From Escherichia coli (GTDB lineage: Bacteria > Pseudomonadota > Gammaproteobacteria > Enterobacterales > Enterobacteriaceae), in the NCBI RefSeq assembly GCF_003334355.1, contig NZ_QOWP01000051.1: DNA of 14,819 nucleotides; one strand, given 5' to 3'. Both the position numbers and the translations under genes were made by a program. The notes under the pieces were generated by a model. The model was not told where the DNA came from. It saw only the letters and a list, made by a program, of their open reading frames with translations, and did not search any database. How positions within the stretch are numbered: the first letter of the stretch is position 1; each line of letters begins with the position of its first letter. Below are positions 3,966 to 4,097 of this stretch, in pieces.

Positions 3966-4097
3966 AATATACTCGTCATACTTCAAGTTGCATGTGCTGC
4001 GTCTGCGTTCGCTCACCCCAGTCACTTACTTATGTAAGCTCCTGAGGATTCACTCGCTTGTCGCCTTCCTGCAACTCGAATTATTTAGAGTATGACT
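3966..4097. repeat. ERIC (enterobacterial repetitive intergenic consensus / IRU) element, ~130 bp, boundaries approximate
   Basis: Plus strand 4010-4031, CGCTCACCCCAGTCACTTACTT, is the exact reverse complement of the ERIC2 primer as I remember it. 4032-4053, ATGTAAGCTCCTGAGGATTCAC, equals the ERIC1R primer with one mismatch. Imperfect outer inverted repeats (…CAAGTTGCA near 3984-3992 and TGCAACTCG near 4070-4078) flank this core. Confidence 0.8.

Follow-up and report, generated by a model that had tools for sequence, protein, structure and literature searches.

An ERIC element at the ancestral cusC stop codon of Escherichia coli and a linked nonsense change that shortens CusC

In the cus operon of Escherichia coli, we found that an ERIC element lies at the ancestral stop codon of cusC and that it is linked to a TGA nonsense change slightly upstream, which shortens the CusC protein. 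On the basis of structure prediction and simple motif scans, this miniature inverted-repeat element (MITE) is probably, for the most part, a tolerated passenger in the operon. ERICs are textbook enterobacterial repeats, the cus copy is part of the K-12 reference genome, and the kind of element is known; also known are ERIC fusions that remove stop codons, from Erwinia, and differential mRNA decay, from Yersinia. The details that appear to be new are the hit in a stop codon, the linked loss of a tryptophan from the reference CusC, the frequencies of the alleles, and the existence of rare stop-loss and TGA-only alleles.

The window, i.e., the whole stretch of 14,819 nucleotides that was analyzed, contains cusS and cusR on the minus strand, followed by cusC, cusF, cusB, cusA, and pheP on the plus strand, and ybdG, nfsB, ybdF, ybdJ, and ybdK again on the minus strand. 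Unless stated otherwise, all features described below are on the plus strand. According to the list of open reading frames and the RefSeq annotation of genomes with the same or nearly the same sequence, cusC is present as the K-12-type allele encoding 457 amino acids (2588-3961). The cusF gene (4119-4451) was likewise taken from the open reading frame list and the RefSeq annotation, and its Shine-Dalgarno (SD) motif AGGAGA was read from the sequence at 4107-4112. The spacer from the cusC TGA (3959-3961) to the cusF ATG (4119) comprises 157 nt, 127 of which are ERIC, in agreement with an earlier note on this DNA that had described a 157-bp spacer consisting almost entirely of ERIC. The remaining bases are 6 nt that once belonged to the cusC coding sequence (8 nt if the TA inside the ERIC unit is included) and 24 nt that represent the last base of the old cusC stop codon (4095) and the original 23-nt spacer. 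The K-12 reference record has no annotated feature inside the cusC-cusF spacer, and an Rfam scan of the whole window gave no match there. The only Rfam match in the window that reached the gathering threshold was sok RNA at 14664-14819. The genome of PSS-12 was 100% identical to the window over positions 3700-4400, and a position-by-position comparison over the full window gave 969 mismatches.

Positions 3968-4094 make up a complete ERIC (IRU/RU-1) unit, 127 nt in length. The earlier note had proposed an alignment with the ERIC consensus, and this alignment turned out to be gapless over the full 127 nt, with 111 of 127 positions identical to the ERIC/RU-1 consensus published for E. coli (text and open frame of the consensus from PMC2759123). 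An ungapped alignment with a Salmonella ERIC copy yielded 117 of 127 identical positions. The central conserved core (4010-4053) consists of two primer sites, and both matches given in the earlier note were reproduced: the ERIC2 primer matched exactly on the minus strand (4010-4031), and the ERIC1R primer matched on the plus strand (4032-4053) with a single mismatch, G to A at 4045. Neither primer matched in any of 200 shuffled sequences. The cus ERIC was 98-100% identical to the E. coli copies at ybhI-ybhJ, at pgk-fbaA, and beside ilvN; an invariant block of 126 nt is common to all four, and in K-12 the cus copy and the ybhI copy are identical. The median number of places found per E. coli genome with an ERIC megablast search was six. 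Together, the primer sites, the consensus alignment, and the high identity to other copies bear out the claim that the spacer holds an ERIC/IRU. The boundaries that had been proposed for it, 3966-4097, do enclose the element; they extend 2 nt too far to the left and 3 nt too far to the right.

The ends of the unit form terminal inverted repeats. A repeat search revealed two arms of 24 nt with 79% complementarity, the left arm at 3969-3992 and the right arm at 4070-4093. They pair with one another at the base of the predicted hairpin, and the right arm includes the AU-rich stretch GAAUUAUUUAGAG. In the sense strand of the element, the ratio of C to G is 1.46. The A at 4045, the sole mismatch to ERIC1R, is rare among occupied genomes, and position 4045 is a G in all other occupied alleles that were examined. 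In a search with a 201-nt query of the occupied site, only the top-ranked row of the sample was 100% identical, and the next rows were at 99.5%. A4045 makes the central stem less stable and puts a TGA into the open frame of ERIC. The defining features of ERICs were found in the cus copy; as to the TA duplication, the target TA is evident and the right dinucleotide is TG. The element in the spacer is a canonical ERIC MITE, and nothing essential sets it apart.

Comparison of occupied and empty alleles located the insertion precisely. Empty alleles read ...GGT GGC GGT TGG CAG CAA TAA CTTTTAACTCCAGGAGAGAATAAATG, and occupied alleles read ...GGT TGA CAGCAATA, followed by 125 nt and then ACTTTT.... 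The insertion proper, which has no counterpart in the empty alleles, comprises the 125 nt from 3970 to 4094 (aligned spans of 701 versus 576 nt), and no other placement is possible, given that the two breakpoints have different bases. The insertion splits the ancestral cusC TAA after TA and extends the gap between cusC and cusF from 23 to 157 nt. The TA at 3968-3969, identified from the empty alleles, is thus both the insertion target and the left flanking dinucleotide, which fits the TA target described for ERICs (PMC3184786, PMC2229807). The third base of the old stop codon, an A, was moved 125 nt downstream to position 4095. The last two ancestral codons of cusC and the TA of its stop (CAG CAA TA, 3962-3969) are now untranslated. 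On the right side, the flanking dinucleotide at 4093-4094 is TG, where a perfect duplication would be TA. TG was present in every occupied cus allele seen and also at the pgk-fbaA copy, whereas the copies at ybhI and ilvN are flanked by TA on the left and on the right. The earlier note had placed the element in a pre-existing spacer, and this view has to be revised: the element occupies the ancestral stop codon of cusC, and a linked nonsense change shortens CusC by three residues.

The distribution of the insertion was analyzed with a 701-nt query spanning the junctions in 5,426 complete E. coli genomes. The cus locus was present in 5,338 of these genomes, and many of the matches spanned only 576 nt, i.e., 125 nt less. 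For the occupied site, the 201-nt query was used, which can reach 80% coverage only when ERIC is present. It identified 1,608 of the 5,426 genomes as occupied (about 30%), including K-12, B, C, ATCC 8739, and several large STEC-type genomes. A clean empty site is present in about 3,700 E. coli genomes, among them O157:H7, 536, and Nissle 1917, and a 70-mer of the empty junction was covered in 3,676. As outgroups, CusF loci in species-representative genomes were surveyed; these six loci suffice for polarity and are too few for a broad survey. The site was empty in E. whittamii, in a second Escherichia representative, and in three Citrobacter species, and these alleles encode a CusC ending in ...GGGW(QQ/AE)* with a spacer of 23-30 nt. 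Because the outgroups are empty, the empty state is ancestral. One species representative, Escherichia sp. MOD1-EC7003, was occupied. Its allele is identical to that of K-12 over 3953-4154 (202 nt), whereas the flanks differ by 4.5%, so that zero differences would be expected with a probability of only about 1e-4. The identity block points to an import by recombination or to homogenization among ERICs. The presence of both occupied and empty orthologous sites at cusC-cusF shows the mobility of the element and agrees with the strain variability expected in the earlier note, and the comparison of spacer lengths suggested there gave 157 versus 23 nt in E. coli, with Citrobacter empty.

The insertion is accompanied by a change at the C-terminus of CusC. 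The annotated cusC of empty alleles has 1383 nt and encodes 460 residues ending in ...LGGGWQQ*. In occupied alleles, including K-12 and the window, CusC ends with ...LGGG* after 457 residues because in all common occupied alleles TGA replaces TGG at 3959-3961; the protein is three codons shorter, and a conserved tryptophan is gone. Alignments, including outgroups with TGG, identify TGA as the derived state and TGG, the tryptophan codon of the C-terminal LGGGW, as the ancestral one. In alignments, LGGGW was also seen in SilC and in an OprJ-like protein, and the alignments with OprM and OprJ cover this C-terminal region too. The crystallized K-12 CusC in the PDB stops at GGG. K-12 CusC, which lacks the tryptophan, is active in efflux.

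In the cus orientation, frame 0 of ERIC does not contain a stop codon and forms an open frame of 42 codons (YTRH...NSNYLEY), so that with TGG the cusC frame runs through the entire element. This combination was found in two genomes, 1919D3 (swine, China) and BHUCD02 (human, India), and represents a stop-loss allele. Read-through adds a Cys-rich tail of 44 residues and results in a CusC of 504 amino acids, the translation of which reads ...GGGWQQYTRHTSS...NSNYLEYDF*; the C-terminus encoded by 1919D3 and BHUCD02 is ...GGGWQQYTRHTSSCMCCVCVRSPQSLTYVSSWGFTRLSPSCNSNYLEYDF*. The frame ends with a TAA at 4100-4102 (from the 1919D3 translation), 4 nt before the SD motif of cusF. PGAP flags the cusC genes of these alleles as pseudogenes. 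Such read-through into ERIC is absent from the window and from about 1,604 other occupied genomes, in which the TGA at 3959-3961 stops translation first. The reciprocal combination, TGA with a clean empty site, occurs in three genomes (1919D62, HH97, and Z1323PEC0010), which encode the same CusC as K-12. A metagenome scan for the junction of the ERIC-containing TGG allele gave zero matches; a control scan for the junction of the ERIC-containing TGA allele gave only seven, and the zero is therefore uninformative.

ERIC and TGA are very tightly associated. About 1,604 genomes have TGA with ERIC and about 3,727 have TGG without ERIC, in comparison to two with TGG and ERIC and three with TGA and no ERIC. 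These approximate class counts correspond to a D' of about 0.998 and an r2 of about 0.996. The change from TGG to TGA is located 8 nt upstream of the insertion. From the sequences we infer that the two may be functionally coupled, in that TGA would have offset the stop-loss or, if it was there earlier, would have made the site safe. However, two changes that are 8 nt apart stay linked without selection, and simple linkage also yields the observed association.

For the order of events, four linked sites were scored, namely 3937, 3961, the element (E, ERIC; 0, empty), and 4096. At 4096, the derived C (ancestral T), which pairs with G4113 in a small predicted hairpin over the SD motif of cusF, is present in all ERIC alleles and in about 1,050 empty genomes. 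The ancestral haplotype A,G,0,T is found in O157, a GPEC strain, and the outgroups; A,G,0,C accounts for about 1,050 genomes, as estimated from even sampling, and G,A,E,C for about 1,600. The rare haplotypes are G,G,0,C (one genome), G,A,0,C (two genomes), G,A,0,T (one genome), A,G,E,C (two genomes, with different flanks), and A,A,E,C (the MOD1-EC7003 species). Parsimony on the four sites did not single out an order: for both orders, all intermediates are present, and each leaves a few haplotypes for which recombination within the 8 nt that separate TGA from ERIC has to be assumed. In occupied E. coli alleles, 3937 and 3961, which are 24 nt apart, are never separated, so that the breakpoints accumulate at the border of the 125-nt heterology. 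Their position fits conversion tracts that would halt there, and it also fits rare excision followed by reinsertion. Spontaneous deletion as a source of the rare classes is unlikely because the breakpoints share no microhomology; transposase-mediated precise excision is possible.

Just short of an even chance, in our estimation, is the order in which ERIC came before TGA. The insertion would have destroyed the TAA, the Cys-rich tail of 44 residues would have been deleterious, and the change from TGG to TGA would have been selected and swept together with the element; the two genomes with ERIC and TGG would be relics or re-creations of the intermediate. All steps of this path are populated, from A,G,0,C (about 1,050) via A,G,E,C (two) and A,A,E,C (MOD1-EC7003) to G,A,E,C (about 1,600). 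In addition, a tolerated nonsense change within 8 nt is improbable by chance, as we estimate that about 1% of random substitutions in this stretch would qualify. The path of the reverse order is fully populated as well, however, through G,G,0,C (one), G,A,0,C (two), and G,A,0,T (one), and conversion tracts that end at the border of the heterology could generate both rare classes. Moreover, all four combinations of TGA and ERIC exist on near-identical flanks, and thus the record has been scrambled by recombination. The reverse order, with TGA before ERIC, is plausible too and falls somewhat short of an even chance: a neutral nonsense change would have trimmed WQQ, and an ERIC in the then untranslated old TAA would have been harmless and could have drifted or hitch-hiked to 30%. 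This agrees with 1919D62, HH97, and Z1323PEC0010, in which a TGA is followed by a clean empty site and CusC is identical to that of K-12, with the one genome with G3937, TGG, and an empty site, which fills the missing step, and with the fact that K-12 CusC is expressed without the tryptophan and was crystallized (structure in the PDB). On the other hand, a rare nonsense allele would have to be the very one that was struck by a rare transposition 8 nt away, and the ERIC-containing TGG alleles (two backgrounds) as well as A,A,E,C would have to be recombinants with breakpoints in stretches of 8 and 24 nt. From the sequences, we lean slightly towards ERIC before TGA, since this order accounts for a tolerated nonsense change adjoining the insertion.

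The cusCFBA genes form one operon that is driven from the cusC promoter and is silent without induction by Cu or Ag. A promoter and terminator scan of 3800-4300 found neither a sigma-70-like promoter nor an intrinsic terminator inside ERIC, and the ideas that the element supplies cusF with a promoter of its own or acts as an intrinsic terminator were therefore dropped. In the absence of such motifs, the element is presumably transcribed along with the operon. The cus-sense RNA of ERIC alone has a predicted folding energy of -36.0 kcal/mol (z = -3.8), which, together with the 79% complementary arms, agrees with the statement of the earlier note that ERIC copies are imperfect palindromes whose transcripts fold into long stem-loops. 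The antisense RNA is predicted to fold better (-49.6 kcal/mol, z = -6.6), and with 30-nt flanks the z-score of the element is only -1.46. In a context of 301 nt, ERIC is predicted to form an independent hairpin, and the sequence around it folds as it does without the insertion. With and without ERIC, the mean unpaired probabilities are 0.446 and 0.430 for the SD motif of cusF and 0.742 and 0.729 for its AUG, and a small hairpin over the SD motif (4096-4113) is predicted in both cases. Occlusion of the ribosome binding site of cusF by ERIC was rejected for this reason, and the equal accessibility means that the element is not predicted to mask initiation at cusF.

In one Escherichia lineage, ERIC was thus inserted into the ancestral cusC TAA at its TA, and we propose that it is passively transcribed within the cusCFBA mRNA as a self-contained imperfect hairpin. 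It would neither occlude the start of cusF, nor terminate transcription, nor supply a promoter. The cusC stop and the cusF AUG are separated by 23 nt when the site is empty; with ERIC, the separation is 157 nt in TGA alleles and 16 nt in TGG alleles, and any coupling by termination and reinitiation would differ accordingly. The element removes the close spacing of the cusC stop and the cusF start, and it may modestly shift the stability of the cusC mRNA relative to that of cusFBA. The earlier note had suggested that ERIC could alter mRNA processing or the ratio of cusC to cusFBA and could thereby contribute to differences in Cu/Ag resistance; such an influence is possible, but the computations do not favour a strong effect, and we give a measurable regulatory effect of the cus copy a little under one chance in three. 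Against a mere passenger, the frequency of 30%, the occurrence in several backgrounds, and the presence in another Escherichia species could indicate selection rather than drift or hitch-hiking.

To our knowledge, Yersinia provides the only experimental precedent for an effect of ERICs in operons. There, ERICs beside stop codons lower the level of the upstream transcript, as reported by De Gregorio 2005 according to passages in PMC2229807, PMC3184786, and PMC10969869, and the same passages describe an effect that depends on orientation and on the exposure of an RNase E site by ribosomes. Relative to what these passages describe, the cus ERIC is similar in that it is located directly downstream of a stop codon within an operon, with the base of the predicted hairpin in reach of a terminating ribosome, and it is possible that it works in the same way. 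Applied to cus, terminating ribosomes would keep the base of the hairpin open and expose an AU-rich RNase E site in the terminal repeat, which we regard as rather unlikely. Cleavage would then lead to 3'-to-5' decay of the cusC segment while the cusFBA mRNA persists, resulting in less CusC per CusFBA, an outcome to which we likewise attach a low probability. The geometry is suggestive: ERIC starts 6 nt past the cusC stop on the same strand and within the operon, the ybhI-ybhJ copy is arranged alike, in the same orientation and 2 nt after the ybhI stop, and the AU-rich GAAUUAUUUAGAG is located in the distal arm. The cus-sense fold is weaker than the antisense fold and would thus be easier to melt. 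However, the footprint of a ribosome halted at 3959-3961 would reach no more than about 8 nt into the 5' arm. The open-access full texts contained no paper that ties an ERIC repeat to cusC or cusF, and a literature search on ERIC and RNase III in E. coli operons found nothing specific. PMC4448311 was dropped as a source on the structure of cusC and cusF, as it concerns regions kilobases upstream.

An effect by translational uncoupling or Rho-dependent polarity appears improbable. In empty alleles, ribosomes terminating 23 nt before the cusF AUG would open the SD hairpin at 4096-4113, whereas in occupied alleles 157 nt of untranslated C-rich RNA would lower the coupled initiation at cusF, offer a loading site for Rho, and reduce cusFBA expression. 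This model can draw on the difference in spacer length (23 versus 157 nt), on the small SD hairpin predicted in both contexts, on the C/G ratio of the sense strand, and on the stop-loss allele, which ends 4 nt before the SD motif. Yet most of the 157 nt are predicted to be base-paired, which disfavours the loading of Rho, and AGGAGA is a strong SD motif whose predicted accessibility does not differ with and without ERIC. In addition, it is established that K-12, which bears the ERIC, expresses functional CusFBA. Our preferred reading is that of a mostly tolerated passenger, the effects of which would be modest at most.

The ERIC (IRU/RU-1) family of the Enterobacteriaceae was reportedly described by Sharples and Lloyd in 1990, Hulton and coworkers in 1991, and Wilson and Sharp in 2006, and the E. 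coli catalogue said to be contained in the latter work very probably includes the cus copy. Like other family members, the cus ERIC has a unit of 127 nt, a core with both ERIC-PCR primer sites, terminal inverted repeats, and a 5'-TA; also shared are several near-identical copies per genome, co-oriented genes on either side, and variation in presence and absence. It differs in that the right dinucleotide is TG instead of TA and that the target was a stop codon. It is "intergenic" only by virtue of the linked nonsense change, and in the two ERIC-containing TGG genomes it lies inside the cusC frame.

A close parallel to these two genomes is found in Erwinia carotovora, where ERIC is fused to the 3' ends of the genes for the amidase ECA3499 and the threonine dehydrogenase ECA0168, with loss of the normal stop codon (Delihas 2007, PMC2759123). 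The proteins are extended at the C-terminus by translation of the open ERIC frame YTRHTSSC...NSNYLEY, and in ECA3499 a later point mutation created a stop codon (PMC2759123). That publication does not mention cusC. The rare ERIC-containing TGG alleles of cusC share the frame and the peptide with the Erwinia fusions. In contrast, the common cus allele terminates upstream of ERIC and encodes a protein that is shorter than its ancestor, and at cus both stop states and the empty site segregate within one species. Another MITE in an efflux-pump operon is the Correia (NEMIS) element, which in Neisseria operons such as mtrCDE is co-transcribed, forms a long hairpin, and is a possible RNase substrate (PMC10969869). 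The cus ERIC is likewise located in an efflux-pump operon and presumed to be co-transcribed. However, Correia elements belong to a different family, are cut by RNase III, and can contain promoters as well as IHF sites, whereas no promoter-like site was found in the cus ERIC in the scan of 3800-4300.

These results have several implications. The CusC in standard laboratory use is the product of a derived allele, being three residues shorter and devoid of a conserved tryptophan, and most E. coli have the longer ancestral form. Genome pipelines call the rare ERIC-containing TGG alleles pseudogenes although they are stop-loss extensions. A far-reaching scenario would be that ERIC destroyed the cusC stop, that TGA was selected as compensation, and that the haplotype measurably alters the ratio of CusC to CusFBA and anaerobic tolerance to Cu and Ag; we regard it as a long shot. 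If it were true, K-12 CusC, the basis of essentially all structural and functional work, would be an allele scarred by a MITE. All four combinations of ERIC and TGA occur naturally on near-identical flanks, for example in strain 73, 1919D62, 1919D3, and K-12, and this natural set of four alleles provides a ready-made test for an effect of an in-operon ERIC on expression in E. coli.

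Escherichia sp. MOD1-EC7003, a species other than E. coli, also carries the cusC-cusF junction with both the ERIC repeat and the derived TGA stop codon of cusC (positions 2250-2560 of its comparison locus, L017). This junction is identical to that of K-12 over 202 nt (window positions 3953-4154), with flanks that differ by 4.5%. By sequence comparison, the tract suggests either a short import or a concerted conservation of ERIC.

Within E. coli, ybhI-ybhJ is a second case of an ERIC repeat located directly 3' of a stop codon within a gene pair. The copy in strain MCJCHV-1 (L005, positions 399-530) is 99% identical to the cus copy, starts 2 nt past the TAA stop codon of ybhI, shares with it the orientation with respect to the preceding gene, and is flanked by TA on both sides. 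Beside ilvN in strain HM670, a 26 nt fragment that matches the reverse complement of the ERIC right end (L007, positions 381-406) adjoins a full-length ERIC, which suggests that a second copy is nested here or has been deleted in part.

The predicted stability of the hairpin formed by the cus ERIC (window positions 3968-4094) is strongly asymmetric with respect to orientation. The RNA of the opposite strand was predicted to fold with -49.6 kcal/mol and thus to be much more stable than the cus-sense RNA, with -36.0 kcal/mol. The asymmetry presumably arises because G-U pairs on one strand correspond to C-A mismatches on its complement. For the pgk-fbaA copy, transcription yields the RNA of the more stable strand.

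Two single substitutions affect predicted structures at the junction. A rare G to A exchange at window position 4045 weakens the central stem of ERIC and, coincidentally, creates a TGA within the stop-free 42-codon frame of the element. This TGA is silent in the window because the TGA at 3959 already terminates CusC, but a mutation of this type would rescue a stop-loss allele, in which the cusC frame runs through ERIC. The C at position 4096 is derived from an ancestral T and occurs in every allele with ERIC as well as in about 1,050 genomes with a cus locus lacking ERIC. A small hairpin (4096-4113) is predicted to cover the Shine-Dalgarno sequence of cusF, and the derived C replaces a U-G pair in it with C-G.

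In strain 720632 (L009, positions 607-1632), an IS1A insertion truncates cusC to its last 273 nt. ERIC, cusF and cusB are still present beside the truncated gene, but the promoter context of cusC is no longer available to cusFBA. The region to the left of cusS varies among strains (loci L012 and L014 versus L013 and L024): nfrA-nfrB is found in K-12 and BHUCD02, and a T6SS vgrG/DcrB-like/Rhs cluster in PSS-12 and 1919D3. Downstream of ybdK, where the window ends on the right, the plus strand matches the sok antitoxin RNA (positions 14664-14819; Rfam RF01794, 63.7 bits, E = 1.9e-12). The annotation of the counterpart in PSS-12 gives a hypothetical protein with a frameshift beside an IS150 transposase pseudogene, and the region is probably a decayed hok/sok locus.
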